Assembly: GCA_963742735.1 (NCBI GenBank)
Contig: CAVUMN010000004.1
Span: 832,001-896,000 of the forward strand
DNA from: an uncultured Actinomycetes bacterium
Lineage (GTDB): Bacteria; Actinomycetota; UBA4738; JBBDTT01
Direction: 5' to 3'
DNA: 64,000 nt
The notes beneath the pieces are model-generated. The model was given only the letters and a program-made list of their open reading frames with translations. It did no database searches and had not been told where the DNA came from. Numbering within the stretch: position 1 is the first letter of the stretch; the number at the start of each line of letters is the position of its first letter. Shown piece after piece: positions 18,682 through 48,051 of this stretch. The position numbers and the translations under genes are program-made.

Positions 18682-18682
18682 G

Positions 18683-19825: not shown

Positions 19826-19832
19826 GACCCGA

Positions 19833-23928: not shown

Positions 23929-23941
23929 GCGCTTCCTCGCG

Positions 23942-25117
23942 TCAGTCCAGGCGTTCGATGATCGTGGCGTTGCCCTCGCCGCCGCCTTCGCACATCGTCT
24001 GGAAGCCGTAGCGGCCGCCGGTTCGCTCGAGCTCGTGGAGGAGGGTCGTCATGATCCGCGCGCCCGTCGCGCCGACGGGGTGCCCGAGCGAGATGCCGCT
24101 GCCGTTCACGTTGACCCTCTCCATGTCGGGCTCGAACTCGCGAGCCCACATCGGCACGATCGAGCCCATCGCCTCGTTGCACTCCAGGACGTCGAAGTCG
24201 TCCATCGTCATGCCGCTTCGCTTCAGGATCTTCTTGGTCGCGGGGATCGGACCCTTCAGCATCACCACCGGATCGGTCCCCACCACCGCGAAGGCGTGGA
24301 ACCGCGCCCGCGGCTTGAGCCCCAGCCGGTCGCACGCCTCCGGCGAGGCAATCAGCAGCGCGGCCGCGCCGTCGCTGTAGGGCGAGGAGTTGCCGGCGGT
24401 GATGTCCGGGCAGTCCGGGCGCACCGGCGGGAGCGACGCGAGGACCTCCATCGAGGTCCCGGGACGGATGCACTCGTCGGTCGTCATCTCCTCGACCGAG
24501 CCGTCCTCGCGCGCGACCTTGATCGGGACGATCTCGCGGTCGAACCGGCCCTCCTTGGTCGCCTCGGCCGCGCGCCTGTGAGACTCGACCGCGAGCTGAT
24601 CCATCTCCTCGCGGCTGATGCCCCACTGCGTGGCGATGTCCTGGGCGGCCTGGAACTGCGTGTAGAGGTTCTGCGGGCCACCCACCGCGTCCATCCAGTT
24701 CTGGCTGAACGGGAAGCCCGGGCCCGTGCCGTTCGCGCCGAGGGGCACCCGCGACATGGCCTCGACCCCGCAGGCGATCGCGACGTCGTAGTGGCCGGCC
24801 TGCACGCCCGCCGCCGCGAAGTGCGCGGCCTGCTGCGCCGAGCCGCACTGCCGGTCCACGGTCGTCGCGGGGACGTCGAACGGGAGCCCGGCGGCGATCC
24901 ACGCGTTACGGGTGACGTTGACTCCCTGCTCGCCGGTCTGGGTCACGCAGCCGCCGATGACGTCGTCGACCTCGAGCGGGTCGATGCCGGCGCGGTCGAT
25001 CAACCCGCGCAGGACCAGGCCGAGCAGGTCGATCGGGTGGAAGCCGGACAGCGTCCCGTTCTTCTTGCCGATCGGTGACCGTGCCGCTCCGACGATGTAC
25101 GCCTCGCCCGCCGTCAT
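23942..25117 (-). CDS. 3-ketoacyl-CoA thiolase (FadA5/FadA6-like)
   Basis: TTVDRQCGSAQQA, NEAM, GHPVGATG, MCEGGG. Confidence 0.95.
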   Translation of the reverse strand: MTAGEAYIVGAARSPIGKKNGTLSGFHPIDLLGLVLRGLIDRAGIDPLEVDDVIGGCVTQTGEQGVNVTRNAWIAAGLPFDVPATTVDRQCGSAQQAAHFAAAGVQAGHYDVAIACGVEAMSRVPLGANGTGPGFPFSQNWMDAVGGPQNLYTQFQAAQDIATQWGISREEMDQLAVESHRRAAEATKEGRFDREIVPIKVAREDGSVEEMTTDECIRPGTSMEVLASLPPVRPDCPDITAGNSSPYSDGAAALLIASPEACDRLGLKPRARFHAFAVVGTDPVVMLKGPIPATKKILKRSGMTMDDFDVLECNEAMGSIVPMWAREFEPDMERVNVNGSGISLGHPVGATGARIMTTLLHELERTGGRYGFQTMCEGGGEGNATIIERLD

Positions 25118-27006: not shown

Positions 27007-29065
27007 TTGGAACCTCCCCGTGTCGGCCACGTAGTTGCCCTGCCGGTCCAGCTTCGCGGTCCATCCCGGCGGGATGACCACGGTGGTGAACGGCTCCTCA
27101 ATGATCGCCGGGCCCTTCACGCTCTGGCCCGCGCGCAGGGCCGGGCCGTCGTAGACCTTTGTCCTGCGGAACCTCCCGCCGAACCACGCCTCGCGCGTCT
27201 CGCCGGCGACGGGTGGATTGCTGCTGCCCGGCGTCCTCGGCAGCGGCGGCGCCTTCAGACGGGCCGACGAGCGGACCCGCAGGGCGGCGATCATCGGCGT
27301 CTCGCCGCGCCGCGCGTAGGTGTGGAGGTCCTCGTGCATCGAGTGGAACCGCTCGGCCAGCCGCTCGAGGCCCTTCGCGTCCATCGTCCCCTTCAGCGGC
27401 ACGTCGATGTCCCAGGTCTGGCCCGGGTAGCGGACCTGCGCGAAGCGCTCGTGCGCGTACTTCTTCGAGGGGAGGTCCGCGCGCGAGAGCTCCTCCGTCG
27501 CCATGGCCTCGAGCTCGCCGAAGATCGCCTCGAGCTTCTCGGGCTGGGCCTCGTTGGTGTTCACCAGCGTCGCCCGCACCCGGTCGACCAGGTAGTCCGA
27601 GACCAGCAGCCCCAGCGCGGAGAACGCCGGGGCCGTGCGGGGGATGACCACCCGGCGGATCCCGAGCTCATCGGCCTGGTGCAGCGCGTGGACCGCGCCG
27701 TTGCCGCCGAACACCAGCAGCGCGAACTCGCGAGGGTCCAGGCCGCGCTCGGCCGAGACCCGCACGATCGCGTTGTTCATGTTCGCGTTCACCAGCCGGT
27801 GGATGCCCCACGCGGCCTCGACGCCGTTCAGGCCGAGTGGCGCGCCGATCTGCTTCTCGATGACCTCGGCCAGCCCGTCCGACTTCAGCGGGAACTCGCC
27901 GCCGGCGAAGTTCTCCGGGTTCAGGTAGCCGAGGACGAGGTTGGCGTCGGTGACGGTGGGCTGGGTCCCGCCGCGGCCGTAGCAGATCGGGCCGGGGTCC
28001 GAGCCCGCGGACTGGGGGCCGACCTGGAGCGCGCCGGCCGTGACCGAGGCCAGCGAGCCGCCGCCGGAGCCGATCGACACGACGTCGACCATGGGCAGCG
28101 CCACCAGGTACCGGTTGATCCAGTTCCACGAGGACTTCACGTTCGGCTCCGCCGCCCGAACCAGGCAGACGTCGTAGGACGTGCCGCCCATGTCGACCGA
28201 GATGAAGTCCGGAACCCCCGCCTCCTTGCCGACGACCGCCGCGCCGCGGACGCCGCCGGCGGGACCGGACGCGAGGGTGGCGATGGGCCGCCCGAGGGTG
28301 GACGAGGCCGTGGCGATCCCGCCGCTCGACTGCATCACCAGGAGCTCGTGGGCGAAGCCCTTCTTCTTGAGCTGCTCGGTCAGGCGCTTCAGGTAGCGCT
28401 GCACCGGCGGGCCGACGTAGGCGTTCACGACGGTGGTCGACGTGCGCTCGAACTCGGGGGCCGCGGGGTGGACCTCGTGCGAGAGCGAGACCATCCCGAC
28501 CTTCGGGTACTCCTTGCGGATGATCTCGCCGATCCGCACCTCGTGGGCCGGGTTCACGAAGGAGAACAGGGTCACCACCGCGATCGACTCGATGCCGGCG
28601 CCCTTCAGCCGGCGGACCGCCCGGCGGACCTCGTCCTCGTCGAGCTCCACCAGGACGTTGCCCTGGTAGTCGAGCCGTTCGTTGAGGGGCAAGCGGAACC
28701 GGCGCGGGGCGATCTGGGGCGGCTTCGGGTACGAGGGGTCCCAGATGTTCTCCTTGTAGCCGCGCCGCAGCTCGATCTCGTCGCGGGCGCCCTTCGAGAC
28801 GAGCAGGCCCGTCTTCGCGCCGTTCAGCTCGATCATCGTGTTGTCGGCGGTGGTGGTGCCGTGGACGATCAGGTCGGTCTGCTCGAGGAACTTCCGCAGG
28901 GTCAGGCCGTTGCCGTCGGCGATGCGCTCCAGGCCCTCCATCACCCCGGCGGACTGGTCGTCCTGGGTCGTGAAGTTCTTGGTCAGGCCGAACGTCGCCG
29001 TCCGGCGCGACCGTGAGGAAGTCGGTGAACGTCCCGCCGACGTCGATCCCAACCCGGTAGCCCAT
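27003..29065 (-). CDS. Hydantoinase A/oxoprolinase family ATP-binding subunit, with an apparent +1 frameshift near 28987
   Basis: MGYRVGIDVGGTFTD is in one frame; LTKNFTT..HGTT..SGPAGG..DMGGTSYD..GSGGGS..AGSDPGPICYGRGG..FGGNG continues in another. Confidence 0.85.
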
Positions 29066-29073
29066 CGACCCTC

Positions 29074-30516
29074 CTACTTGAGCTGCACGTAGACGTTCTT
29101 GGTCTCGAGGTAGCTGTCCAGGGCCTCCCGGCCGCCCTCCCGGCCGAGGCCCGAGTCCTTGTAGCCGCCGAACGGCGTCCCCGGGTTCACGAGCAGCCAT
29201 GAGTTCACCCAGACGGTCCCCGCCCGGATGGCCTTGGCCACGCTGTGCGCGCGGTTGAGGTCGTTGGTCCACACCCCGCCGGCCAGGCCGTAGGGGGTGT
29301 CGTTGGCGATCGCGATGGCCTCGGCCTGGTCCGCGAACGGGATGACCGAGAGCACCGGTCCGAAGATCTCCTCCCGGGCGATCCGCTGGTCGTTCGTCAC
29401 GCCGGTGAGGATCGTCGGCGGGACGAAGTAGCCGTCGGCAAGGTCGCCGGCGAGACGCTCGCCGCCCAGGACCACCTCCGCGGAGCCGCGGGCCTCGTCC
29501 ACGATCCCCAGGACTCGCTGCAGGTGCGGCTCGGAGATGAGCGGGCCCATCAGCGTCCCCGGCTGGAGCGGGTCGCCCACGGTCATGCCCCCCGCGGCCG
29601 CCTTCACCCGCTCGACGAACGCGTCGGCGATCGAGGCCTCCACCAGCAGCCGGCTGCCGGCGAGGCACGTCTGTCCGGTGTTGAGGAAGATGCCGGACGC
29701 CGCGGAGAGGGCGGCCGCGTCCAGGTCGGCGTCGGCGAACACGAGGTTCGCGGACTTGCCGCCGAGCTCCAGGGAGACCTTCTTCAGGTTCCGCCCGGCG
29801 ATCTCGGCCACACGGCGGCCGGTCTCGCTTCCGCCGGTGAACGCGATGCGGTCCACGCCCGGATGCTCGATCAGGGCGGTCCCGGTCGAGCCGTCGCCGG
29901 TGACCACGTTCACGACCCCCCGCGGGAAGCCGGCCTTGGCGACCAGCTCGGTCAGGCGCAGCGGCGCGAGCGGGGCGAGCTCCGACGGCTTGAGGACGAC
30001 GGCGTTGCCGGCCGCCAGGGCGGGTGCCAGCTTGAACACCGACAGGGAGATCGGCGCGTTCCACGGGATGATCGCGGCGACCACGCCGATCGGCTCCCGG
30101 AGCGTGTAGTCGAACACCCCCGGCGCCGTGACCGGCACGACCGCGCCCTCGATCTTGTCGGCCCATCCGGCGAAGTACTCCAGGTACTCGGCGGAGAAGA
30201 GGGCCTCACCCATCGTGAAGCCGTGGGGCATCCCCATCTCCTCGCTGGCCACCCGGCCGATCTCCATCGCGTCCTCGGCCAGGAGCTGCGCCAGACGAAG
30301 GAGCAGCTTTCGGCGCTCCTGGGGCGGGGAATCCGCCCACCCGCGGTCGAGCGCCTTGCGGGCCGCGGTCACGGCCGCGTCCACCTCCTCGACGGTGCCG
30401 GTCGGCACCGACGCCAGGGCCTTTCCGGTGGTGGGGTTGAGGTTCTGGATCGACTCGCCGGCGCCCTCCCGCCACTCACCCCCGATGAACAGCTTGGTCA
30501 CGGTCTCGGTCGTCAT
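29074..30516 (-). CDS. Aldehyde dehydrogenase
   Basis: IPWNAP, FTGGSETG, LELGGKS, GQTCLAG, EEIFGPV. ATGA overlap start. Confidence 0.95.
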   Translation of the reverse strand: MTTETVTKLFIGGEWREGAGESIQNLNPTTGKALASVPTGTVEEVDAAVTAARKALDRGWADSPPQERRKLLLRLAQLLAEDAMEIGRVASEEMGMPHGFTMGEALFSAEYLEYFAGWADKIEGAVVPVTAPGVFDYTLREPIGVVAAIIPWNAPISLSVFKLAPALAAGNAVVLKPSELAPLAPLRLTELVAKAGFPRGVVNVVTGDGSTGTALIEHPGVDRIAFTGGSETGRRVAEIAGRNLKKVSLELGGKSANLVFADADLDAAALSAASGIFLNTGQTCLAGSRLLVEASIADAFVERVKAAAGGMTVGDPLQPGTLMGPLISEPHLQRVLGIVDEARGSAEVVLGGERLAGDLADGYFVPPTILTGVTNDQRIAREEIFGPVLSVIPFADQAEAIAIANDTPYGLAGGVWTNDLNRAHSVAKAIRAGTVWVNSWLLVNPGTPFGGYKDSGLGREGGREALDSYLETKNVYVQLK

Positions 30517-31685
30517 GCCCCCACCCGCTCGATGACCATGGCCGAGCCGAGCCCGCCCCCGGCGCACATGGTCGCCACGCCGTATCGGCCCTCACGCCGC
30601 TCGAGCTCGTGCAGGAGCGTCGTCACCAGGCGCGCGCCGGTGCACCCGACCGGATGGCCGAGGGCCACGGCGCCGCCGTTCACGTTGACCTTCTCAGGAT
30701 CGAGACCGAGCTCGCGGACGCAGGCCACCGTCATCGCCGCGAACGCCTCGTTCAGCTCGATGAGCTCCATGTCCTCCAGGCTCAGGCCGGCGCGCTTCAA
30801 CGCCTTGGGGACGGCCTCGATCGGGCCGGTCCCGGTGTAGTTGGGGTCGACCCCCACGCTGGCCCAGCCGCGGATCACGGCGCGAGGCGTCAGGCCGAGG
30901 GCCTGCGCCTTCGACGCGGAGGTGACCACCAGCGAGGCCGCCCCGTCGTTGATGCCGCTGGCGTTGCCGGCGGTGACCGTGCCGCCCTCCTTGTAGACCG
31001 GAGGGAGCTTCGCGAGGGCCTCGAGCGTCGTGTCGCGCCGGGGGCGCTCGTCGGTGTCGACGGTCGTGGACCCCCGCTTCCCGGGGACCTCGACCGGGAG
31101 GATCTCCTTCGCGAACCGTCCCTCGTCGATGGCGGCCACCGCGCGCTGGTGCGAACGCAGCGCCCATTCGTCCTGGTCCTCGCGGGTCACGCCGTACTTC
31201 TCGGCGACGTTCTCGCCGGTGTTCAGGCCCACGGAGAACGGTCCCATCTCCAGCGGATGGGTCAGCGGGATGAAGTACTCGGCGGGTTTGCGGGCGTACG
31301 CCTGGGCCGGCCGGCGCTGCAGGAACGGCTGCTGGGACATGCTCTCGGTCCCGCCGGTCAGGAACGCCTCGCCGGTGCCCGCCCACACCGCCGTGGCCGC
31401 CTGGATCACGGCCTCGAGCCCGGTGGCGCACGCCCGGATCACCGTGTAGCCGGGGACCTCGCGGGGGACCCCGACGGCCAGCCCGATGAAGCGGCCGGCG
31501 TTGCCGCCGCCCCCCACCGTCTCGCCGATGATCACGTCGTCGAACACGCCCGGGTCGATCCCCGCGCGGGAGATGGCCTCCCGGCACGTGGCGATCGACA
31601 GATCCCAGGCCGAGACCGGTGCGAGCGCGCCGCCCGCGTTGCCGATCGGCGTGCGCACCGCGGCGACGATGACCGCGTCTTCCAC
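30513..31685 (-). CDS. Acetyl-CoA C-acyltransferase (thiolase)
   Basis: RACATGL, NEAFA, GHPVGCTG, MCAGGG. Confidence 0.95.
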   Translation of the reverse strand: MEDAVIVAAVRTPIGNAGGALAPVSAWDLSIATCREAISRAGIDPGVFDDVIIGETVGGGGNAGRFIGLAVGVPREVPGYTVIRACATGLEAVIQAATAVWAGTGEAFLTGGTESMSQQPFLQRRPAQAYARKPAEYFIPLTHPLEMGPFSVGLNTGENVAEKYGVTREDQDEWALRSHQRAVAAIDEGRFAKEILPVEVPGKRGSTTVDTDERPRRDTTLEALAKLPPVYKEGGTVTAGNASGINDGAASLVVTSASKAQALGLTPRAVIRGWASVGVDPNYTGTGPIEAVPKALKRAGLSLEDMELIELNEAFAAMTVACVRELGLDPEKVNVNGGAVALGHPVGCTGARLVTTLLHELERREGRYGVATMCAGGGLGSAMVIERVGA

Positions 31686-31692
31686 GACTCGC

Positions 31693-32733
31693 TTATAGCC
31701 CCTCGGGCCCGGTGCGTGCGACCCCTCGCGCCTGGCTCACGAGCCGGAGCACCAGCGGACCCATGGCCTCGTGCATCGGGTTGTCGCTCTTGCCGGTGGC
31801 GAACCGGTGGTAGCTGCCCTCCAGGATGCAGGCCAGCTTGAACAGCGCGAGGACCACGTAATAGTCGAGCCGGTCCAGCGAGCGGCCGCTGACCGAGGCG
31901 TATCGCTCGGCCAGCTCGGCCCGCGCCGGCAGGCCCGTCCGGTCGGCGAAGTAGGCGCTGGTGAACCGGGCGTCCTCCTCGTCCGGGTCCTGCCAGCCGG
32001 CGAGCAGCCACCCGAGGTCGAGCAGCGGATCGCCGATCGTGGACTGCTCCCAGTCGACGATGGCGGCGAGCCGCGCCGGGCTCTGCGGCGCGAACATCAC
32101 GTTGATGAACTGGTAGTCGCCGTGCAGGATCGCCGGCTCGGTGCCCTCGGGGCGCGCCTCGTCGAGCCACCCCGCGACCTCGTCCAGCCCCGGGAGGTCG
32201 CGGCTCCGGTAGGTCTCCAGCTGTCCGAGCCATCGCCCGACCTGCCGCTCGAGGAAGCCCTCCGGCTTGCCGAACCCCTCCAGCCCGACGGCCCGCCAGT
32301 CGACGTTCGCCAGCTCCGCGATCCCCTCGACCAGACGCAGCCCCATGTCCCGGCGGACGCCGGCGTCCCGGTCGAACGGCGGCGGGAGTGGCTCGCGCGG
32401 CGCGAACCCCTCGACCTTCTCCATGACGAAGAACGGCGCGCCGATGACGGCGTCGTCCTCGCAGAGCAGCAGGGGCGTCGGATGCGGGACGGCCGTGCCG
32501 TCCAGCGCCTTCAGCACCCGGAACTCCCGTCCCATGTCGTGCGCGCTCCTCGAGACCTTGTGCCGGGGGGGACGGCGCAGGATCCAGGTGTCGCCGCCGC
32601 GGACGAGCTCGAACATCTCGTTGGAGGCCCCGCTCGAGACGCGGTCGGCGGTGAAGGGCTCGCCCGCGCCGGGGAGCCGGTCGCCCACCCAGGCGTCGAG
32701 CGCGGGAAGGTCGATCAGGCCGCGGTCAGTCAA
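31693..32733 (-). CDS. APH-family phosphotransferase (ACAD10/11 kinase-domain/LvaA-like)
   Basis: GASNE, LRRPP, SAHDMGREFRVL, HGDY..N, DWEQSTIGDPLLDLGW. Confidence 0.9.
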   Translation of the reverse strand: MTDRGLIDLPALDAWVGDRLPGAGEPFTADRVSSGASNEMFELVRGGDTWILRRPPRHKVSRSAHDMGREFRVLKALDGTAVPHPTPLLLCEDDAVIGAPFFVMEKVEGFAPREPLPPPFDRDAGVRRDMGLRLVEGIAELANVDWRAVGLEGFGKPEGFLERQVGRWLGQLETYRSRDLPGLDEVAGWLDEARPEGTEPAILHGDYQFINVMFAPQSPARLAAIVDWEQSTIGDPLLDLGWLLAGWQDPDEEDARFTSAYFADRTGLPARAELAERYASVSGRSLDRLDYYVVLALFKLACILEGSYHRFATGKSDNPMHEAMGPLVLRLVSQARGVARTGPEGL

Positions 32734-33994
32734 CGCTGAGCGCGTCCAGGACCGTGGCGAACCTCGCCCGCGCGGCCTCGCGGCGGGTGGGGACGTGCTC
32801 GCTGGGCCACGGGCCGTCGTGGGGCTCGACGTCCTTCAGGGCCCGGCGGGCGATCGTCACACGGTGGACCTCGTCGGGTCCGTCCATGATCGGCAGGGCC
32901 CGCGCGAGCCGGTACATCCCCTCCAGCGGCAGGTCTTCCGAGTACCCGAGGGCGCCGTGGATCTGCAGGGCGCGGTCGATCACGTCGTGCAGGGCTCCGG
33001 AGACGAAGACCTTCGCCGCCGCGATCTCGGTCCGGGCGCCGGACGAGCCCTGCTGATCGGTGACCCACGCCGCGTGCAGGACCAGCAGCCGCGCGGCGTG
33101 GATCTGGATCCACGAGTCGGCGATCCAGTTCTGGACGGTCTGCTTGTCGGCGAGGACGCTGCCGTGCGCGTAGCGCGACACCGCCCGCTCGCGGAGCATG
33201 TCGAAAGCCCGGCCCATCTGGCCCAGGTAGCGCATGCAGTGGTGCAGGCGGCCCGGGCCGAGCCGCTTCTGGGCGATCGTGAACCCCTCGCCCTCGCCGC
33301 CCAGCAGCGCGTCGGCCGGCAGGCGCACGCCCTCGTAGAGGATCTCGGCGTGGTGGGGCCCGCCGTACATTCCGGCCACCTCGCGAACGATGTTCACGCC
33401 CGGGGTTCCGCGGGGGACCAGGAACATCGACGCGCGGGAGTGGGGCTCGGCGCCGGGGTCGGTGACCGCCATGACGATCAGGAACTCGGCGATCGCGGCG
33501 TTCGAGCTGAACCACTTGTGCCCGTCCAGGACCCACTCGTCGCCGTCGCGGACGGCGTGCGTCTCCAGGAGCGTCGGATCCGAGCCGGCGTTCGGCTCGG
33601 TCATCGAGAAGCACGACCGGATGCGGCCGTCCAGGAGCGGCGCCAGGTACTTCGCGCGCTGCTCCTCGGTCCCGTACATCGCGAGGATCTCCGCGTTGCC
33701 GGTGTCGGGGGCCTGGCACCCGAACACCTCGGGCGCGTGGCGCGTCCGGCCGAGGATCTCGTTCATCAGGGCGAGCTTCACCTGGCCGAACCCCCGGCCC
33801 CCGAGGTCGGGACCCAGATGGCAGGCCCAGAGGCCGCGTTCCTTCACCGCGGCCTTCATCGGCTCGGTGACGGCGCGCAGCTGTTCGTCGGTGAGCTCGA
33901 GCGTCTCCAGCGGCGTGACCTCGTCGCGGACGAACGCGCGCATCCACTCGAGATGGGGCTCGAACTCCGGGTCGGTCGAGAAGTCCCAGCTCAT
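32726..33994 (-). CDS. Acyl-CoA dehydrogenase (ACAD10/11, FadE2/LvaC-like)
   Basis: CQAPDTGNAE, SMTEP, GHKWFSS, RLGPGRLHHCMR, IMDGPDEVH. Confidence 0.93.
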   Translation of the reverse strand: MSWDFSTDPEFEPHLEWMRAFVRDEVTPLETLELTDEQLRAVTEPMKAAVKERGLWACHLGPDLGGRGFGQVKLALMNEILGRTRHAPEVFGCQAPDTGNAEILAMYGTEEQRAKYLAPLLDGRIRSCFSMTEPNAGSDPTLLETHAVRDGDEWVLDGHKWFSSNAAIAEFLIVMAVTDPGAEPHSRASMFLVPRGTPGVNIVREVAGMYGGPHHAEILYEGVRLPADALLGGEGEGFTIAQKRLGPGRLHHCMRYLGQMGRAFDMLRERAVSRYAHGSVLADKQTVQNWIADSWIQIHAARLLVLHAAWVTDQQGSSGARTEIAAAKVFVSGALHDVIDRALQIHGALGYSEDLPLEGMYRLARALPIMDGPDEVHRVTIARRALKDVEPHDGPWPSEHVPTRREAARARFATVLDALSVD

Positions 33995-34446
33995 CCGGCG
34001 GCGAGCTCCCGCTTGCGGGCCTTCCAGCGTTCGATCATGTCGATGAACGCCTGGGGGTTGTACGCGTCCTCCTCGTAGGACCACCGCCCGTCGCCCGCGT
34101 ACTTCAGGAGGGTGAGGTTCGCCTCCTCGTGGACGCTCCCGTCGCCGGGGTCCTCCATGCGGTTCCAGATCTTGCAGGCGATCCAGCCGCGCTCGGTGTC
34201 GACGATGTACCACTCGATCGGGAACAACGGCATGGCGTTGCCCGGGAAGACGCTCATCACCTGGGTGATCCAGGTCCGGATGGCCTCGCGGCCGTGCATG
34301 GTCCCGAAGAGGTGCTCGACGTAGGTGGCGTCCTCGGTGAACAGGTCGGCCCACGCGTTCCAGTCCTTCGTGCGTCCGGCCTCCTCGCCGACGCGCTGGT
34401 AGTCGGCGAAGGCCTCCTCGAGCTCGTCGCGCGACCAGGTCTCCAT
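33991..34446 (-). CDS. NTF2/SnoaL-like protein
   Basis: DWNAWADLFTEDATYVEH..GREAIR..YEEDAYNP. TAGGCT lies 7 nt before the ATG. Confidence 0.88.
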   Translation of the reverse strand: METWSRDELEEAFADYQRVGEEAGRTKDWNAWADLFTEDATYVEHLFGTMHGREAIRTWITQVMSVFPGNAMPLFPIEWYIVDTERGWIACKIWNRMEDPGDGSVHEEANLTLLKYAGDGRWSYEEDAYNPQAFIDMIERWKARKRELAAG

Positions 34447-34456
34447 CGCCCGCAGC

Positions 34457-35374
34457 CTAGCCGCGGAGCGCGGGCAGCACGTCCCGCGCGAACAGCTCGG
34501 TCCCGGTCGTCACATCGGCGCGGCCGAAATGGCAGACGAAGTGGGTGACGCCGGCATCGGCGTACTCGCGCAGGCGGGGCAGGACCTGCTCGGGGGTCCC
34601 GGCCACGACCCGCTCGCCGTACAGGCGGGCGTTGCGATTGTCCGAGCCGCGAGCCCGCTCGGCGCGGGCCGCGACGCGGTCGCCGTCCTCGTCCACCCAC
34701 ACCGGTCCGTAGTACGTGACCTCGGGCATGGGCCGCCCCTCGCCCTCGGCGTAGGCGCGCAGGCGATCGGCGCGCGCGGCGACGTCCTCGGGCGCCAGCA
34801 GCGGGGCGTTCCACGCGTCGGCGAACCGCCCGGCGACGCGGAGCAGCCCGTCGCCCCGCCCGCCGATCCAGATCGGGGGACGCGGCGACTGGAGCGGGCG
34901 CGGGCAGTCGGCCACGCCGTCGCCCGAGTACCAGCGGCCGGTGAACGCGCGCCCCTCCCACATCCCCGTCAGCACCTCCAGGGCCTCGGCCAGGCGTTCC
35001 GCGCGCTCGGCCCCTTCGAGCCAGGGGTAGCCGAACGAGTCGTACTCCGCGCGGTAGCCGCCGGCGCCGATGCCCAGGTTGAGCCGGCCGCCGCTCAGGT
35101 GGTCGAGCGTGGCCGCGGCGCTCGCCAGCCATGCCGGGTTCCGGAACGCCTCCGCGAGCACCAGCGGGCCGCATCGGATCGTCGAGGTGCCCAGCAGGAC
35201 GGCGGTCAGCGTCGTCCACGCCTCCCACACCGGGCTGCCCGGGGCGACGGCGATCACGCGGAGGTGGTCCTCGACCCACACGGAGTCGAACCCGAGCGAC
35301 TCGGCGAGACGAGCGTGCTCGACGACCGTGCCCAGGTCGGCCCCCTCCTGGGGGACGAGGATCCCGACCTTCAC
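34457..35374 (-). CDS. LLM-class flavin/F420-dependent oxidoreductase
   Basis: AESLGFDSVWVEDH, EAWTTL, RNPA, LDHLSGGRLNLGIGAG, PPIWIGG, ADAWN. Confidence 0.92.
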   Translation of the reverse strand: MKVGILVPQEGADLGTVVEHARLAESLGFDSVWVEDHLRVIAVAPGSPVWEAWTTLTAVLLGTSTIRCGPLVLAEAFRNPAWLASAAATLDHLSGGRLNLGIGAGGYRAEYDSFGYPWLEGAERAERLAEALEVLTGMWEGRAFTGRWYSGDGVADCPRPLQSPRPPIWIGGRGDGLLRVAGRFADAWNAPLLAPEDVAARADRLRAYAEGEGRPMPEVTYYGPVWVDEDGDRVAARAERARGSDNRNARLYGERVVAGTPEQVLPRLREYADAGVTHFVCHFGRADVTTGTELFARDVLPALRG

Positions 35375-35405
35375 GAGGCGTTCACGAGGCGTTCACGAGG
35401 CGTTC
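35370..35405. repeat. 11-bp tandem repeat (TTCACGAGGCG)x3+TTC at a gene junction
   Basis: Read directly: ttcacgaggcg ttcacgaggcg ttcacgaggcg ttc. Confidence 0.95.
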
Positions 35406-36493
35406 TTCGCGGCGAGCTGGACCGCGTCGACGCAGTCGTCCGCCGTGATGCCCGCCGCCGCGTCGGGCTGATCGACGTCCTCGGCGTCGAGGACGGAGCG
35501 CACTCGTGTCAGCAGCTCCTCTCGGTCGGCCGCGTTCGCCCCCGCGAGCGCGCCGGCGACGCGCTCCATGGCGTCGGGCGGGGACAGGTGCATGTCCCCG
35601 GCCATCAGCGCACGCACGATCGTGCCGGCCTCGTCCACGGCCACGCCCGCACGGACGAGCTTCTTGCCCTTCACGTTGGCGAAGCCGACCCGCGAGCCCT
35701 CCGGCGCCGTCTCGGTGAACCGCGAGGTCGAGGTACGCCGGACCCAGTCGTCGGAGCTCACCAGGTCGGCGAAGCCGGGCGCGCCGGCCGCCTCCTCGAC
35801 GGTGAGCTCGCTGTCCTCCAGGTCCAGGCCGAGCACCTCACGGCTCGCGGAGGCGATCGCGTCGCGGAACTCCTCGTAGCCGAGGTCGGTGCCGCGGACG
35901 TCGGCCGGCGTGCAGATGTAGGCGACCGCGTCCTTGATGACCTTGTCCTTGAACTTCTCCTCGGGGACGCGGGCGACGCGCGCGTACAGCTCGAGGTCCG
36001 GGCGCTTGAGGTTGAAGAACGAGCCCACCACGTTCACGCCGAGGGCGGTCTGGCTGATCAGCGCGCCGAGCTTGCGCCCGTTCCAGCGCAGGTCGGAGCT
36101 CCCCTCGAAGGCCACCTCGGCCAGCCCGAGGTCGTCCAGGGCCCGGCGCATGGCCGGGCGGAAGTGCTCCAGCGCCTCGTCGAGGTCGGGCCACCGGGCG
36201 GGGGAGAGGAAGTACGAGAACATCGCCACCGCGTCGGTGTCGTAGAACGCGGCGCCACCGCCCATGATCGGCCGGCGGAAGACGTCCACGCCGGCGTCGC
36301 GAGCCGCCGCGAGGTCCAGCACCGCGTCGACGTCCTCGAACCACCCCACCTGGAAGTGCCCGCGGCTCCACCGGGCGGTCATCAGGATCTCGGGGCCGCC
36401 GTTGATCACGCTCCCGGCCATGGTCGGCATGCGCCCGAACATCACGGGGGCCTCGACGGGCCCGATGTCGACGAACCGCCAGCGGTCCGGCAT
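35393..36493 (-). CDS. Lipoate-protein ligase A-like protein (two-domain, divergent)
   Basis: VFRRPIMGGGAAFYD, D..WNGRKL, VPEEKFKDK, and a C-terminal LplB-like domain (AGDMHLSP..AL.G). Confidence 0.82.
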   Translation of the reverse strand: MPDRWRFVDIGPVEAPVMFGRMPTMAGSVINGGPEILMTARWSRGHFQVGWFEDVDAVLDLAAARDAGVDVFRRPIMGGGAAFYDTDAVAMFSYFLSPARWPDLDEALEHFRPAMRRALDDLGLAEVAFEGSSDLRWNGRKLGALISQTALGVNVVGSFFNLKRPDLELYARVARVPEEKFKDKVIKDAVAYICTPADVRGTDLGYEEFRDAIASASREVLGLDLEDSELTVEEAAGAPGFADLVSSDDWVRRTSTSRFTETAPEGSRVGFANVKGKKLVRAGVAVDEAGTIVRALMAGDMHLSPPDAMERVAGALAGANAADREELLTRVRSVLDAEDVDQPDAAAGITADDCVDAVQLAAKNAS

Positions 36494-36499
36494 CCGCGG

Positions 36500-37204
36500 C
36501 TAGGAGGAGACCGTTCGCTCGAAGCCCTGGGCCACCGCGGTGGTCGCCTCGAGGACCTCGCGGACCCCCCACTTCGACCGCTCGAGGAGCTCCTCGGAGG
36601 TGCAGTACTTGCGGATCATCTCGATGGCCCGGCCGGCATGCTCCTCGTCGGCCTCGAGGTGCATGAAGAAGAACTCCAGGTCGTGCTCCGATAGCCCGTA
36701 CTGGTCCCGGTAGATCTGTCCGAGGAAGGCCATCGTCCACGTCCGGGCCTCGATGCCGTAGGACAGCGCCGCCAGCCCCACCACGAAGTGCTCCTCAATG
36801 CAGAGCTTGAGGATCCGATCGACCCACTGGCGGCTCTCCGGGATCGGCTCCACGTCGAACGGGTCGGGGATGTCGGCGCCGAGGGCTCGCGCGAACCGGG
36901 TGACCAGCTGGATGTGGTCGCGCTCGTCGTCGCCCTCGCCGTGCTCCTCCCAGAGGTTCTCGAGCATGAGTTCGCGCACGTCGCGCGGAGCGGCGTTGGC
37001 ATACACGGCGGCGATGAACCGTTTGAACTGGTCCACCTGGAACGGGTACGAGGTCGCGAAGGGGACGAGCTTCTCCTTCGGGATCAGGCCCTGGGCGAAC
37101 TGCTGCATGAAGGGCCGCTCCTCGAACAGGACGCTGCGCGTGACCTCCTCGAGCTCCTTCACGACGCGGTCGGGATCGACGGCGGTGGCTGTGTTCGGTG
37201 GCAT
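36500..37204 (-). CDS. Heme-oxygenase-like diiron oxidase (CADD/PqqC/TenA superfamily)
   Basis: ENLWEEHG..DH, YGIE, HLEADEEH. Confidence 0.85.
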   Translation of the reverse strand: MPPNTATAVDPDRVVKELEEVTRSVLFEERPFMQQFAQGLIPKEKLVPFATSYPFQVDQFKRFIAAVYANAAPRDVRELMLENLWEEHGEGDDERDHIQLVTRFARALGADIPDPFDVEPIPESRQWVDRILKLCIEEHFVVGLAALSYGIEARTWTMAFLGQIYRDQYGLSEHDLEFFFMHLEADEEHAGRAIEMIRKYCTSEELLERSKWGVREVLEATTAVAQGFERTVSS

Positions 37205-37281
37205 CGTTCGATGATTGCACGCGAATCGGAGGCGCTGCTAGGTTCGCCGCTCTCACCCACTCGCAAAGAAGGAGTCAACGC

Positions 37282-38199
37282 ATGGGCTTGCTGGACGGAC
37301 GCGTCGCGGTGGTGACCGGCTCGGGCCGGGGGATCGGCCGGGGGATCGCCCTGGAGCTGGCGAGCGAGGGCGCGAAGGTCGTCATCAACGACGCGGGCGT
37401 CGACGTGGACGGCCGCGGCGGCTCGGAGGACCCGGCCGCGCAGGTCGTCAAGGAGATCGAGGCCGCGGGCGGCGAGGCCGTCGCGAACTACGGTGACGTG
37501 TCGAAGTGGGACGAGGCCCGGGGCATCGTCCAGGCGGCCGTCGACGCGTTCGGCAAGATCGACATCGTCGTGAACAACGCCGGCATCCTCCGCGACAAGT
37601 CGCTGCTCAAGATGGAGGAGGAGGAGTTCGACGCGGTGATCGGCGTGCACCTGAAGGGCACCTTCAACGTCACCCGCCACGCCGCCGGGCTCATGAAGGA
37701 GCAGGGCTATGGCCGGATCATCAACATCGTCTCCAGCGCGGGGCTGCGGGGGAACTTCGGGCAGACCAACTACTCCGCGGCCAAGGCCGGGATCGCGGGC
37801 ATGACCCTCACGTGGGCGATCGAGCTCGGGAAGTACGGGATCACGGTGAACGCCATGGCGCCCGCGGCGGTCACCCGGATGACGACGGGGCTGCTCACCG
37901 CCGACCCGGAGAAGATCCCGCCCGAGATGGACCCGAAGAACAACGCGCCGATGATCGCGTTCCTGGCCAGCGAGGCCGCCGGACACGTGAACGGGCAGGT
38001 TCTGGGGCGCCGCGGCTACACCTACACGATCTTCCAGCAGTACAAGATCATCGCCGGCATGTACCAGGCCGGCGGGTGGAAGCCGGCCGACGTCGCGAAG
38101 CAGTTCGACACGATCCTCGCCGGCTACATGACCGCGCCCGGCATGGACATCACTATCAAGAAGCCGGAGAAGGCGGACGGCGAGACGAAGGCGGGCTGA
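37282..38199 (+). CDS. SDR oxidoreductase (3-hydroxyacyl-CoA dehydrogenase/HSD4-like)
   Basis: TGSGRGIG, NNAGILRD, GNFGQTNYSAAK. SD AAGGAG. Confidence 0.95.
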   Translation: MGLLDGRVAVVTGSGRGIGRGIALELASEGAKVVINDAGVDVDGRGGSEDPAAQVVKEIEAAGGEAVANYGDVSKWDEARGIVQAAVDAFGKIDIVVNNAGILRDKSLLKMEEEEFDAVIGVHLKGTFNVTRHAAGLMKEQGYGRIINIVSSAGLRGNFGQTNYSAAKAGIAGMTLTWAIELGKYGITVNAMAPAAVTRMTTGLLTADPEKIPPEMDPKNNAPMIAFLASEAAGHVNGQVLGRRGYTYTIFQQYKIIAGMYQAGGWKPADVAKQFDTILAGYMTAPGMDITIKKPEKADGETKAG

Positions 38200-38639
38200 T
38201 GGAGGTCAGCTACTCGGAGGAGGGCCGCGTCCCCGGCCCGCCGGAGGCGGCCTACGACCTCCGCGTCGACTTCACCCGGCTGCCCGAGTACAACCCGAAT
38301 GTCTCGAACCTGGTCCGCACCGACGGCGGTCATACGAGCGGCGCCGGCGCGGTATACGGCTTCGACATGACGATGCCAGACATGGGCGCGGTGTCGGGCG
38401 TGATCTCGGTTTTGGAGGCGGACCGGCCCTCTCGCGTGTACACGCGGACGGACTCCGGGGTGTTCTCCGCACTCGAGGAGGTCCGCTTCGTGCCCGACAG
38501 CGAGGGAACGCGGGTGACGTTCGACGTGGTCGTGGAGGTGCCCGACGACATGGAGGCCGTCGCCCCCATGGTCGACGCGTCGGGGCGCGAGCAGGTTCGC
38601 CTGGAGCTCGACCACATGGCGAAGGTGCTCGGCTCGTGA
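38199..38639 (+). CDS. SRPBCC family protein
   Basis: PPEAAYDLRVDFTRLPEYNP..G.GAVY..GTRVTF. TGATG overlap start. Confidence 0.8.
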   Translation: MEVSYSEEGRVPGPPEAAYDLRVDFTRLPEYNPNVSNLVRTDGGHTSGAGAVYGFDMTMPDMGAVSGVISVLEADRPSRVYTRTDSGVFSALEEVRFVPDSEGTRVTFDVVVEVPDDMEAVAPMVDASGREQVRLELDHMAKVLGS

Positions 38640-39427
38640 CCGGCCGCCTGCAGGGCCGGGTGGCGATCGTGACCGGCGCCGGCCAGGGGCTCGGCCGGGC
38701 CTACGCGCTGCGCTTCGCGGAGGAGGGCGCGAAGGTCGCCGTCGCGGAGATCAACGACGCGAACGGCGAGGCGGTCGCCAAGGAGATCGCCGACGCGGGC
38801 GGTGAGTCGATGTTCGTCCACGTCGACGTCTCGGACGAGGAGTCGACCCTGGCCATGGCCAGGGCCGTAGCCGAGCGTTTCGAGCGCATCGACATCCTGC
38901 TCAACAACGCCGGGCTGTACTTCGACCTCGACCAGAAGGACGACTCGCTCGAGTACCTGAAGCACGTGATCGACGTGAACATGCTCGGGCCGTGGCTGTG
39001 CGTCCGCGCGGTGTTCCCGTTCATGAAGGCCCAGGGCGGCGGGAAGGTCATCAACCAGTCGAGCGGCGCCGCATGGATGTACGCGATGTCGGGCTACGCG
39101 ATGCGCTCCGACGCCGAACGCGTCCCGAGCTACCACTACTCGGTGTCGAAGGCGGGGGTGAACGCGTTCACCCACTTCCTGGCCGCGGCCCTCGGCCAGT
39201 TCGGGATCAACGTGAACGCCATCGCGCCGGGCGTGGTGATGACCGAGGCCACCAAGAAGCACGTCCCCGAGCAGATGGTGGGGATGATCAAGATGGCCTC
39301 GTCGCTGCGCCGCACCCTGGAGCCCGAGGAGATCACCGGCACGGCGGTGTTCCTGGCGAGCGACGACGCGAACGCCATCACCGGCCAGGTCATCCCGGTC
39401 GACGCCGGCGTCACGATGCTGGGATGA
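38636..39427 (+). CDS. SDR oxidoreductase
   Basis: TGAGQGLG, NNAG, YSVSK, VNAIAPG, ITGQVIPVDAG. Confidence 0.95.
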   Translation: MTGRLQGRVAIVTGAGQGLGRAYALRFAEEGAKVAVAEINDANGEAVAKEIADAGGESMFVHVDVSDEESTLAMARAVAERFERIDILLNNAGLYFDLDQKDDSLEYLKHVIDVNMLGPWLCVRAVFPFMKAQGGGKVINQSSGAAWMYAMSGYAMRSDAERVPSYHYSVSKAGVNAFTHFLAAALGQFGINVNAIAPGVVMTEATKKHVPEQMVGMIKMASSLRRTLEPEEITGTAVFLASDDANAITGQVIPVDAGVTMLG

Positions 39428-39855
39428 CCCCCGAGCCGGTCGACGTACCACACGACCTCGAGCCCTCCCTGCAGCGCCTGCTCGGGATCAAGATGTCGTT
39501 CGGCCCGAACGGCGAGGGCATCGCGTGGGTCGAGATCGACAAGGACAAGCACTACGGCCGCACGCGGGTGCACGGGGGCCTGTTCCCCCCGCTGGTCGAC
39601 GTGGCCGGCGCCATCGCGGTCGCCCGCGACTCCGACGACGCGCTGAACGCCGTCGACGCCACGATCGACATGCACGTGAGCTACCTGCGCAAGGCCCGCG
39701 AGGGCGACCTGACCGCGACCGCGCGGATCGTCCGCCGCGGCCGTCGGGTGGCGGTGTGCGAGGTGGACCTCACCAACCAGGGCGAGCTGTGCGGCAAGGC
39801 CATCGTCACGTACCTGCTGCGCCCGAACTCGAAGCCCGACCCCGAGGGCGGATGA
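39424..39855 (+). CDS. PaaI-family (hotdog) thioesterase
   Basis: VHGGLFPPLVD, TIDMHVSYLR, RRGRRVAV. ATGA overlap start. Confidence 0.88.
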   Translation: MTPEPVDVPHDLEPSLQRLLGIKMSFGPNGEGIAWVEIDKDKHYGRTRVHGGLFPPLVDVAGAIAVARDSDDALNAVDATIDMHVSYLRKAREGDLTATARIVRRGRRVAVCEVDLTNQGELCGKAIVTYLLRPNSKPDPEGG

Positions 39856-40496
39856 CCGAGCTCTTCGAGGCGATCCACACGCAGCGGGCCATCCGCCGGT
39901 TCACGGACGAGCCCGTGACCGACGAGGAGATCCATCAGGTCCTGGAGGCCGCGACCAAGGCGCCCAGCGCCTCGAACACCCAGCCCTGGTCGTTCGTCGT
40001 GATCCGCGAGCCCGATCGTCGCCGCCAGCTCGCCGAGCTGTACGCGAAGAGCTGGGAGATCGCGAGGAACTTCTACGGCGACCCCGAGGCGGCCGAACAC
40101 GACTGGGAGCGCCGGATGCTCGTCGCGGTGAACGGGATGGCCGCGTCGCTGGAGTCGGCCCCGGTCCTGATCCTCGCGTGCCTGGATCGCGCCCGGCTGG
40201 GCCCGCTGGTCACCACCGACCTGGCGACGCTGCTCGATCCGCCGTCGGCGTACGGAGCGATCTGGGCGGCGGTCCAAAACCTCCTGCTCGCCGCGCGTGG
40301 CCTCGGACTGGGGACGGTTCCGACGACCCTCCACCGCCTCCACGAGCCCCAGGTCCGCGCGCTCTTCGAGCTCCCCGACACGGTCGAGCCGATGGTCCTG
40401 GTGGTGATGGGTCGGCCGGACGCGCCGTTCGGCCCCACGTCACGGGACCCGGTGGAGCAGGTGACGTTCGCGGAACGCTGGGGAGATCCGCTCTAA
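39852..40496 (+). CDS. Nitroreductase family protein
   Basis: RAIRRF, APSASNTQPWSF, QNLLLAARGLGLG. Confidence 0.92.
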   Translation: MTELFEAIHTQRAIRRFTDEPVTDEEIHQVLEAATKAPSASNTQPWSFVVIREPDRRRQLAELYAKSWEIARNFYGDPEAAEHDWERRMLVAVNGMAASLESAPVLILACLDRARLGPLVTTDLATLLDPPSAYGAIWAAVQNLLLAARGLGLGTVPTTLHRLHEPQVRALFELPDTVEPMVLVVMGRPDAPFGPTSRDPVEQVTFAERWGDPL

Positions 40497-46470: not shown

Positions 46471-46902
46471 CTACGCCGGGTGGAACACCGGCAGGGACAC
46501 CACGTCGTCCTCGGCCCTCGCCTCCGCGCGGAAGGCCACGGCGACCGGCATGTCGCAGCGGACGTCCTCCGGGGCGATGCCCTCGATGTTCGAGGTCATC
46601 CGGACGCCCTCCTCGAGCTCGACGATGGCCACCACGTAGGGGGTCCGTTCGTTGAACGGCGGGAGGTCGTTCTGGTGGACCACGGTGAAGGTGTAGACGG
46701 TTCCGCGGCCGCTGGCCTCGATCCACTCGGTATCCGAGGACCAGCACTTCGGGCAGTAGGTGCGCGGATAGAAGAAAACCTCGCCGCACGCGTTGCACGA
46801 CTTGATGAGGAGCCGGCCATCGCGGGCGGCCTCCCAGTACGCCTCGGTCTCCACGTCGGGGACCGGCAGATGCCAGGTCTTCGTCCTCGGCATCTCGGGC
46901 AT
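46471..46902 (-). CDS. Zn-ribbon/OB-fold DUF35 protein
   Basis: YWEAA..CNAC..YPR.YCPKC..GRGTVYTFT..PYVVAIVELEEG. Confidence 0.93.
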   Translation of the reverse strand: MPEMPRTKTWHLPVPDVETEAYWEAARDGRLLIKSCNACGEVFFYPRTYCPKCWSSDTEWIEASGRGTVYTFTVVHQNDLPPFNERTPYVVAIVELEEGVRMTSNIEGIAPEDVRCDMPVAVAFRAEARAEDDVVSLPVFHPA

Positions 46903-48051
46903 CTACTCGACCCCCAGGATCAGCGTGCCGGTGGAGGAGAACCACCCGCCGGTGCCGTTCACCGCGGCGAGCTTCGCGCCCTCCACCTGGCGACCCTCGG
47001 CCTCACCGCGGAGCTGCCGGGCGGCCTCGATGACCAGGAACAGGCCACGCATCCCCGGATGGTTCGAGGACAGCCCGCCACCGTCGGTGTTCGTCGGCAG
47101 GTCGCCGTCGATCGTGAGCCTGCCGCCCTCGACGAATGCCCCCCCCTCGCCCTTTCCGCAGAACCCGAGGGCCTCGAGGGTGAGCAGGACCGTGATCGTG
47201 AACGAGTCGTAGACCTGGACGACGTCGATCTCGTCCGGCTTCACACCGGCCATCCCGAACGCCCGCCGGGCGCTGTGGACGGCGGGCGACTCCGTGAAGT
47301 CCTCCCACTCGGCCATGTTGTGGTGGCTCGACGCCTCCGCCGCGCCGAGGATCCACACCGGGGCTTTCGGCAGGTCCCTGGCGCGGTCCTCGCCGACCAG
47401 GACGACCGCCCCACCTCCGTCGGAGCGGATGCAGCAGTCGAGCTTGTGCAGCGGGGTGCAGATCTGCCTCGAGCCGACGACGTCCTCGACCGTGATGGGG
47501 TCGCGGTACATCGCGAGCGGGTTCCGGGCCGCGTTCGCCCGCGTCTGGACGGCCACCTCCGCGAGCTGCTCGGGCGTCGTGCCGAACTCGTGCATGTGCC
47601 GGGTCGCGGCCATGGCGTGGCGGCCGATCACCGTGTGGCCGTAGGCCGACTCGAACTGGGCCGGGCCCCGCGCGTCGATGGCCACGTTCGAGCTCCGGAT
47701 CTTGCGCTTCAGGTCGGAGCGCGAGGTGGTCGCATAGGGAAGCAAAGCCACGTCGCAGAGCCCCGCCTCGATGGCGCCGACGGCGTGATGCACGAAGAAC
47801 TCCCACGACGACCCGCCCACCTGGGTGCCGTCGACGTAGCCGGGGCGCAGCCCGAGGTACTCGCCGACGACGACGGGATGCATGTGGTGAGCGCCGCACG
47901 AGAACAGGCCGTCGACGTCGCCCTTGGTCAGGCCGGCGTCGGCGAGGGCCAGCGACGAGGCCTCAGCGTGGAGCTGGAGGGCCGTGGCGTCGGGGACCTC
48001 ACCGAACCGGGACTCGGCCACCCCGGCGACGGCGACCCTGCGGCGAGGCAT
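46903..48051 (-). CDS. Thiolase-like protein (SCP-x type) lacking the nucleophilic Cys
   Basis: QVGGSS, DCCIRSDGGGA, YDSF, NTDGGGLSSNHPG. Confidence 0.92.
   Translation of the reverse strand: MPRRRVAVAGVAESRFGEVPDATALQLHAEASSLALADAGLTKGDVDGLFSCGAHHMHPVVVGEYLGLRPGYVDGTQVGGSSWEFFVHHAVGAIEAGLCDVALLPYATTSRSDLKRKIRSSNVAIDARGPAQFESAYGHTVIGRHAMAATRHMHEFGTTPEQLAEVAVQTRANAARNPLAMYRDPITVEDVVGSRQICTPLHKLDCCIRSDGGGAVVLVGEDRARDLPKAPVWILGAAEASSHHNMAEWEDFTESPAVHSARRAFGMAGVKPDEIDVVQVYDSFTITVLLTLEALGFCGKGEGGAFVEGGRLTIDGDLPTNTDGGGLSSNHPGMRGLFLVIEAARQLRGEAEGRQVEGAKLAAVNGTGGWFSSTGTLILGVE

Follow-up and report, generated by a model that had tools for sequence, protein, structure and literature searches.

A haem oxygenase-like oxidase and an LplA-fold ligase-like protein encoded side by side in a conserved acyl-CoA catabolic cluster of uncultured Actinomycetota

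Introduction

All LplA-family enzymes characterised so far act, to our knowledge, on lipoyl domains and on lipoyl or octanoyl groups. Here we analyse an LplA-like protein (P0002) whose gene lies between those of a haem oxygenase-like di-metal oxidase (HDO; P0001) and a luciferase-like monooxygenase (LLM; P0003) in a 64,000-nucleotide stretch of DNA ('the window'; G000:C4:832001-896000), with window coordinates used throughout. G000 is the genome of an uncultured soil actinobacterium (3.08 Mb in 5 contigs, 89% complete), and the GC content of the window is ~71%. The three genes had been proposed, from the DNA sequence, as a candidate new acyl-modification system operating without a lipoyl carrier. 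We find that the HDO–ligase gene pair is real, conserved within its lineage and located within a catabolic cluster; its members represent two uncharacterised subfamilies whose folds are known. We consider the two genes more probably neighbours within this cluster than parts of a new system of protein modification, for which the pair is not yet evidence.

Among solved structures, the best sequence relatives of P0002 are LplA and LplB of Thermoplasma acidophilum (2ars, 2art, 3r07; E values of 1.8e-15 and 0.0023). P0002 shares with this LplA the RR-x-GGG loop, the T/S-D motif, the catalytic Lys and the 'VP(D/E)EKF(K/R)DK' adenylate loop, but it fuses both parts into one protein, catalytic domain first, at an identity of ~20%, with the pocket His replaced by Gly157 and 'YHD' by 'FYD'. 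Escherichia coli LplA has the same two-domain order and fold as P0002 (Foldseek match to 1x2g, E 3e-17), its K133 corresponding to K141, its D122 to D134 and its RRSSGGG loop to RRPIMGGG, whereas N121 is changed to Ser, V77 to Ala and H79 to Tyr, the H149 region is shorter in P0002 and the profile match is very weak. In Mhp-Lpl of Mycoplasma hyopneumoniae, a divergent LplA, the otherwise conserved pocket His is itself a Gly, yet the enzyme is reported to ligate lipoate actively to its own H protein (PMC7186572). When Mhp-Lpl (6jom) is compared with P0002 (E 1.4e-14), this His/Gly position falls on the invariant G157 of the P0002 family, although the two proteins share ~16% identity, come from different lineages and Mhp-Lpl has no catabolic-cluster context.

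Linkage of an LplA paralogue to an LLM has been reported for the extended SirTM operon of Staphylococcus and Streptococcus, which comprises LplA2, GcvH-L, SirTM, a macrodomain protein, an LLM and an old yellow enzyme (PMC4518038). None of GcvH-L, the sirtuin and the macrodomain is encoded by the 15 annotated genes of the cluster described here, and this precedent therefore does not apply; clusters of the window type also differ in lacking the LLM at some loci and in that their other genes encode catabolic enzymes. A specialised lipoate-protein ligase dedicated to a pathway-specific carrier is reported for the sLpl(AB)–LbpA system of Hdr-like sulfur oxidation (PMC6067878). That system has an adjacent lipoate-binding protein, whereas neither the window nor any of the 80 related loci described below yielded a gene for a GcvH-like or biotinyl-domain protein.

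On the side of the oxidase, the closest described protein is CADD (CT610; 1rcw, 8va9), which shares with P0001 the seven-helix HDO fold and the metal site of six residues. The two differ by an insertion of 4 residues that lies between the first Glu and His ligands and by the location of P0001 in a catabolic operon, with a true CADD-family paralogue elsewhere in G000. Tyr27 of CADD is reported to be cleaved to yield p-aminobenzoate (pABA), and the Y27F exchange to kill activity (PMC9522330). In agreement with the original prediction, no description of an HDO–LplA pair was found in the literature searched, the coverage of which excludes subscription journals; nor did this literature describe beta-oxidation clusters containing an LplA-like gene, and a 2026 mini-review on HDOs (PMC13108848) mentions neither lipoate nor a ligase.

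Sequence, fold and family of the ligase

P0002 falls into a compact and as yet uncharacterised clade of proteins that have two domains and the LplA fold and are encoded by uncultured Actinomycetota and Acidimicrobiia. An AlphaFold2 model built from a 69-sequence alignment has two domains (predicted local distance difference test, pLDDT, 91.7), and the best Foldseek matches are LplA structures aligned over the full length (template modelling (TM) scores of 0.64–0.78, 16–21% identity). Residues 34–215 match PF21948 above its gathering cut-off of 27 bits, whereas the scores against the LplA equivalog TIGR00545 (30.9 bits, cut-off 280) and against NF053751, which describes circularly permuted actinobacterial LplAB (49.9 bits, cut-off 550), stay far below the thresholds. 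Because TIGR00545 passes in 3 of 14 control genomes and registers in 8, the failure of P0002 to reach it is weak evidence. The catalytic part of P0002 corresponds to positions 132–346 of NF053751, and its LplB part lies at the C-terminus, whereas that model requires it at the N-terminus; residues 274–361 score 22–28 bits against LplB models (26.2 against a cut-off of 65, for example), all below cut-off.

The ligase was predicted to retain the catalytic Lys among altered motifs, and these are indeed present as RRPIMGGGAAFYD (residues 73–85), SSD (residues 132–134) and K141-LGA. Judged from its sequence, P0002 keeps the RRxxGGG lipoate-binding loop, Asp134, the catalytic Lys141 and a Lys-rich adenylate loop. 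R73, R74, G78–G80, D134 and K141 are invariant in all 69 family sequences and, in alignments with the T. acidophilum and E. coli enzymes, coincide with the lipoate-binding loop, the Asp and the catalytic Lys, K141 falling on the Lys of 'GEKKIMG' in the former and on K133 in the latter. The underlying hhalign alignment with E. coli LplA is weak (probability 10%, E 0.0031) but sensible motif by motif.

A phmmer search of 1.84 billion representative sequences returned 428 relatives of P0002 at E<=1e-3, 115 at E<=1e-10 and 25 at E<=1e-30. In a quick maximum-likelihood tree of 103 rows, which took in 80 representatives of 335–420 aa from the 149 new phmmer representatives, the family is recovered as a single clade of 26 rows (22 from the family and 4 representatives; SH-aLRT 99) with a stem branch of 0.47 and short internal branches. 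This clade nests in a radiation of LplA-like proteins of ~365 aa, in which the match to LplA and LplB models improves stepwise towards the more distant members (maximum of 154 bits on TIGR00545).

The oxidase is a diverged relative of CADD

P0001 has the HDO helical fold with the ligand pattern E, ExxH-type, E, HxxxDxxH, and the full ligand set noted in the original prediction is borne out by the residues E86/E87/H88, H97, E152, H182, D186 and H189, which are invariant in 26 of 26 aligned sequences. A Foldseek search with its AlphaFold2 model (pLDDT 93.4) gave CADD as the closest solved structure (TM 0.81–0.89, 21–22% identity), followed by PqqC, FlcD, UndA and BesC, and a profile comparison with CADD (1rcw) gave an E value of 5.5e-31. 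That CADD is nearest in both structure and sequence is what would be expected if P0001 were a CADD orthologue, that is, a self-sacrificing pABA synthase for folate, but we consider this very improbable and reject CADD-type pABA synthesis by P0001. The position of CADD Tyr27 is occupied by Met33, as anticipated from the apparent lack of a sacrificial Tyr, and by Leu, Ile, Val or Met in the family, with no Tyr at this position among 25 orthologues; the position of the neighbouring Lys152 of CADD is occupied by Gln163 and varies in the family; and P0001 scores 84.3 bits against TIGR04305 (CADD), below the cut-off of 200. Moreover, a second HDO of G000 (C4 ~1407150-1407790; L003:1429-2064, minus strand) passes TIGR04305 with 240.5 bits and keeps the residues aligned with Tyr27 and Lys152 ('FY' plus Lys), so that it is likely the genome's true CADD of the pABA-synthase type. 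We infer that P0001 is a diverged CADD paralogue and that, having lost the self-sacrificial Tyr and Lys, it should turn over a free small molecule with O2.

Conservation of the gene pair

A search for related loci with P0002 returned 80 loci, in which genes were counted on the basis of tblastn matches. In 13 of them (L011-L022 and L033), the ligase is 59.6–83.4% identical to P0002, and all 13 carry an HDO orthologue (70–86% identity) upstream on the same strand, directly adjacent in 9. A gene is inserted between HDO and ligase in the other four (L012, L014, L015 and L033), the inserts including an unassigned open reading frame (ORF) of 231 aa in L012, a methyltransferase gene on the opposite strand in L014 and an enoyl-CoA hydratase gene, also on the opposite strand, in L033. 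The surrounding cluster is conserved as well. An orthologue of the first short-chain dehydrogenase/reductase of the window (SDR1; 74–89% identity) is divergent from the HDO gene in 13 of 13 linked loci, and SDR2 (71–92% identity), the SRPBCC protein and the thioesterase were matched in the 10 loci that reach far enough. The thiolase, aldehyde dehydrogenase and hydantoinase genes are kept in several linked loci and the nitroreductase in L017 and L021 only, while the LLM is missing in L016 and L020. Four loci (L013, L017, L019 and L021) have ~1.3 kb between ligase and LLM; in L019, the one of the four that was scanned, this space holds an ORF for an M20-family peptidase/amidohydrolase of ~440 aa, and an amide hydrolase beside an amide-forming ligase may be of interest.

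No HDO was detected at tblastn E<=1e-3 in the other 67 loci, which encode ligases 42–54% identical to P0002, come mostly from Acidimicrobiia and, in 64 cases, carry at least 1 kb of upstream sequence. An HDO is thus dispensable for the function of the ligase family, 67 of the 80 loci having none. Among the 59 distant-clade loci with enough downstream sequence, 32 have an SDR gene directly downstream of the ligase on the same strand (for example, L074:11113-11900), the product of which is only 23–30% identical to SDR1 or SDR2 of the window; an SDR is the most constant neighbour of the ligase family outside the HDO-linked subclade. Other neighbours in the distant clade include Zn-dependent dehydrogenases, AMP-binding ligases, acyl-CoA dehydrogenases (ACADs), SnoaL proteins and alkyl-sulfatase-like metallo-beta-lactamase proteins.

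Within the order to which G000 belongs, an HDO orthologue was found in only 3 of 294 genomes (G000, G001 and G012), a fourth match being a 33% paralogue, and the ligase was found in the same three. The 294 genomes and the set of 41 relatives used below include six flagged as unpublished (G006, G014, G027, G030, G031 and G039), none of which has either gene. The pairing noted in the original prediction thus holds throughout the near subclade and in the order, but not across the ligase family as a whole. Among the relatives listed, 28 of 120 HDO relatives match a ligase relative in the size of the longest contig, as read from the tables, which suggests that the size-matched pairs share contigs in metagenomes. 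A search of sequencing runs listed no RNA run, and its best DNA run, a soil metagenome, had 0.22 of the query words. Prediction of a complex between P0002 and P0001 scored 0.00 (mark 0.32) and gave no answer either way.

Lipoylation genes in G000 and its relatives

The original prediction stated that the window lacks a lipoyl carrier, LipA and an E2, and this is correct: no match to GcvH, Biotin_lipoyl or LipA (PF01597 and PF00364 included) was found in the window, all matches in G000 lying outside C4:832001-896000, and a tblastn search of the window with lipoylation genes gave a single weak and irrelevant match (E 5e-4) inside an AMP-binding gene. The standard components are present elsewhere in the genome, with GcvH at C3:846170-846526, a lipoyl E2 near 205 kb of C2, LipA at C2:193032 and lipB beside the E2. 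The lipB gene (C2:203101-205200; L005, L092) alternates in frame, has an internal TGA and scores 41 bits on TIGR00214 against 147–160 in relatives; by eye, the frame of the adjacent E2 also appears broken in places. These breaks reflect either a local assembly error in a long-read metagenome-assembled genome or gene decay. PF21948 matches only P0002 and lipB in G000, which makes P0002 its sole two-domain LplA-type protein, and four near-clade genomes (G012, G300, G301 and G302) likewise have only LipB and the P0002-family protein. All 41 relatives of the order have a PF21948 match, which is of LipB strength (132–171 bits) in 39, only 53 bits in G007 and the frame-broken lipB in G000; 12 of the 41 have a second match.

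LipA was found in 24 of 26 family-bearing genomes (G000, G041 and 24 further genomes, of which 23 have it), and LipB looks intact in 8 of 9. In G041, two GcvH and an E2 were detected, and LipB and LipA were not found, the completeness of this genome not being stated. A canonical LplA besides the P0002-family protein in Acidimicrobiia was considered and rejected, the strong PF21948 matches being LipB: neither TIGR00545 nor NF053751 exceeded its cut-off in any of five genomes, the best TIGR00545 match in each was the P0002-family protein, and LipB was present in four. Three or four of the five also encode an extra small single-domain PF21948 protein, a third, uncharacterised type of lipoate-ligase-like protein in Acidimicrobiia genomes. 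The example at L101:513-1457 (G041:C1 ~2.48 Mb) has RRRSGGGAVW and GRKVVG motifs and lies just upstream of a mraZ-like gene, and partial matches of the same kind occur in G042 and G043.

Possible roles of the gene pair

The explanation that we favour, and to which we give about an even chance, is that P0002 is a lipoate- or octanoate-protein ligase for standard acceptors, encoded beside a small-molecule catabolic HDO. P0002 would form an acyl-adenylate from lipoate or octanoate with ATP and then pass the acyl group to a lysine, the putative acceptors being the ordinary lipoyl domains (GcvH and E2) encoded elsewhere in the genome, and it would serve as the salvage ligase of the lineage next to LipB and LipA. 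P0001 may be a CADD-derived di-metal oxidase that acts with O2 on a free small molecule, probably an intermediate of the catabolic pathway of the cluster, and the two proteins would then be neighbours in one cluster and not successive steps on one substrate. We place the ordinary ligase at this level because of the base rate of the LplA family as we know it, the intact catalytic apparatus and the standard acceptors in the genome, and also because there is no other two-domain LplA and the ligase family is independent of the HDO. Since Mhp-Lpl is active with a Gly in place of the pocket His, the pocket changes of P0002 are on their own no argument against lipoate.

Several observations nevertheless weigh against an ordinary lipoate ligase. 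P0002 is remote from every curated LplA model, as the scores above indicate. Relative to E. coli LplA, its pocket carries Ala82 for V77, an invariant Tyr84 for H79 and an invariant Gly157 for H149, and its C-terminal domain has unusually invariant residues (K275, K278, GDM(H) and Q342) for which this reading offers no explanation. Given LipA in 24 of 26 genomes and LipB in 8 of 9, a salvage ligase is not required. A tblastn search of the 80 loci, in which the true lipoyl E2 of the genome was not among the queries, detected no gene for LipA, GcvH or a biotinyl-domain protein; the ligase gene instead sits among genes of acyl-CoA metabolism in both subclades, and within its own order it is confined to the three genomes that have the HDO cluster, in the manner of a cluster-bound accessory gene.

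Most of these observations speak for a different role, in which P0002 adenylates a non-lipoate carboxylic acid of the cluster pathway and transfers it to a non-lipoyl amine or thiol acceptor. The candidate acid, medium-chain or oxygenated, would either come from the 4HBT thioesterase or be a product or substrate of the HDO, which in the HDO-linked subclade would act one step before or after P0002. The SDR gene downstream of so many distant-clade ligases and the tight clade on its long stem branch fit such a role, which is set against our knowledge of characterised LplA-family enzymes, all of which act on lipoyl or octanoyl groups and lipoyl domains, the presence of AMP-binding ligases in the island itself and the 67 loci without an HDO. 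The exchange of the pocket His for Gly, for its part, is compatible with lipoate ligation (PMC7186572). We regard the non-lipoate role as unlikely, and keep it at that level and no lower because of the divergence from the models, the invariant changes in the pocket and the C-terminal domain and the patchy, cluster-bound distribution. The fuller proposal that the P0002 clade has left lipoate metabolism altogether, loading a pathway acid made or consumed by the HDO on a non-lipoyl acceptor, appears rather improbable to us. We would also give little credence to P0002 loading octanoate freed by beta-oxidation and the thioesterase on apo-lipoyl domains for LipA, with an unrelated HDO. The thioesterase, ACAD, thiolase and SDR genes around the ligase gene in both subclades, the wide occurrence of LipA and the retained catalytic residues agree with such a link, but it is purely contextual, LipB makes a second octanoyl route unnecessary in 8 of the 9 genomes tested, and acyl-CoA genes are abundant enough in these genomes for some co-location to be expected by chance.

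For the new acyl-modification system, then, the genes, the motifs, the lack of a carrier in the window and the linkage in the near subclade all stand. Against it are the independence of the ligase family from the HDO, the genes inserted between the two in 4 of 13 linked loci, the presence of GcvH, E2 and LipA elsewhere in G000 and the position of P0002 as the only two-domain LplA-type protein of that genome. The use of the LplA-like protein as a stand-in for a CoA ligase missing from the cluster was considered and rejected, since AMP-binding CoA ligases are encoded in the island (15909-17294, 49025-50311 and 59825-61117) and an unusual activating enzyme is not needed; in several distant-clade loci, AMP-binding ligases are encoded directly upstream of the ligase gene.

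If the ordinary ligase is the right answer, P0002 represents a new subfamily of lipoate ligases, distant in sequence, from uncultured Actinomycetota and Acidimicrobiia of soil, and P0001 a new HDO subfamily that shows a self-sacrificing CADD giving rise to a paralogue without the sacrificial residues. Should the bolder proposal prove true, it would add a new class of substrate or acceptor to the LplA fold, the first non-lipoyl chemistry there, and a first catabolic partner to the HDOs, so far mostly known from biosynthesis. The ligase clade is small, tightly conserved and amenable to a simple enzyme test under either.

Organization of the cluster

The three ORFs exist with the domains first claimed for them (CADD-like, LplA-like and LLM), as judged from the Pfam matches (Table 1) and from a GC content at third codon positions of 0.93–0.97, the coding signature expected in a 71% GC genome. 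Their predicted arrangement as a three-gene operon holds in that the genes adjoin, with the HDO stop at 36500 and the ligase ATG at 36493 leaving the reported 6-bp gap and 18 bp separating ligase and LLM; together they in fact open a tightly packed minus-strand operon of 10 genes, which runs from 37204 to 23942. Frame analysis with Pfam and NCBIfam scans placed the junctions of these 10 genes between an 8-bp overlap and a 21-bp gap. Together with a divergent operon of five genes, the 10-gene operon forms a conserved acyl-CoA catabolic cluster within a lipid-catabolism island.

Table 1 Features of the catabolic cluster (window coordinates)
Feature	Position	Strand	Evidence
P0001, HDO, CADD relative, 234 aa	36500..37204	-	PF14518 Haem_oxygenas_2 90.5 bits; TIGR04305 84.3 bits
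P0002, two-domain LplA-fold ligase-like protein, 366 aa	35393..36493	-	PF21948 LplA-B_cat 49.5 bits; LplB-like C-terminus
P0003, luciferase-like oxidoreductase (probably F420-dependent), 305 aa	34457..35374	-	PF00296 173.5 bits
SnoaL/NTF2-like protein	33991..34446	-	PF13577 and PF12680; stop overlaps ACAD start
Acyl-CoA dehydrogenase (ACAD)	32726..33994	-	Frame plot, translation
APH-family phosphotransferase	31693..32733	-	PF01636 136.5 bits; start overlaps ACAD stop by 8 bp
Thiolase	30513..31685	-	Thiolase_N and Thiolase_C; TIGR01930 451 bits
Aldehyde dehydrogenase	29074..30567	-	PF00171 584 bits
Fused hydantoinase A/B, caprolactamase-like ATP-dependent enzyme, 1312 aa	25114..29052	-	Hydantoinase_A and Hydantoinase_B domains
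Second thiolase, final gene of the operon	23942..25117	-	Thiolase_N and Thiolase_C; PRK07801 479 bits (cut-off 591)
Divergent intergenic region, 78 bp, HDO start to SDR1 start	37205..37282	.	Sequence reading
SDR1, first gene of the divergent operon	37283..38199	+	adh_short 173 bits; PRK07791 309.8 bits (cut-off 373)
SRPBCC/polyketide_cyc2-like protein	38202..38639 (by frame)	+	PF10604 46.4 bits
SDR2	38636..39427	+	adh_short_C2 188.9 bits
4HBT-type acyl-CoA thioesterase	39430..39855 (by frame)	+	PF03061 51.7 bits
Nitroreductase-family protein	39861..40496 (by frame)	+	PF00881 103.7 bits

A scan of 23500-38500, which returned few sites overall (0 promoter-like and 2 terminator-like, both of the latter on the plus strand; shuffled mean 3.8), found no minus-strand terminator-like site in the 10-gene operon, and no sigma-70-like site was scored in the 78-bp divergent region. 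SDR1 probably starts at ATG 37283, where AAGGAG lies 8 nt ahead; its longest ORF, from GTG 37198, would overlap with the start of the HDO gene, and the homologue alignments agree better with the ATG. Several of the encoded enzymes fall below the curated thresholds of the models that they match. P0003 scored 190 bits on the F420-LLM model TIGR03560 (cut-off 231.4), the best NCBIfam ACAD model for the ACAD was AcrC, an acryloyl-CoA reductase (198.8 bits, cut-off 640), with no model passing, and the fused hydantoinase scored 595 bits for CapA and 304 bits for CapB (both below a cut-off of 1000). The CapA/CapB-like fusion hints at ATP-dependent opening of a lactam or carboxylation of a ketone in the pathway of the cluster.

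Elsewhere in the window are two ACAD pairs, two SCP-x-type thiolases, one of them with a ChsH2-type DUF35 protein, enoyl-CoA hydratases, a P450, a second LLM and an ABC transporter. The ChsH2-type DUF35 and SCP-x-type thiolase genes and the paired ACAD genes lie at 46471-48051 and 17524-21478, a set that we take to be characteristic of the actinobacterial degradation of steroid or branched-lipid side chains. The overlapping ACAD and APH genes of the minus-strand operon (31693-33994) resemble, by make-up alone, a division over two genes of the kinase-plus-ACAD enzymes ACAD10 and ACAD11, which are reported to bring 4-hydroxyacyl-CoAs into beta-oxidation (PMC11342911, PMC12440821).

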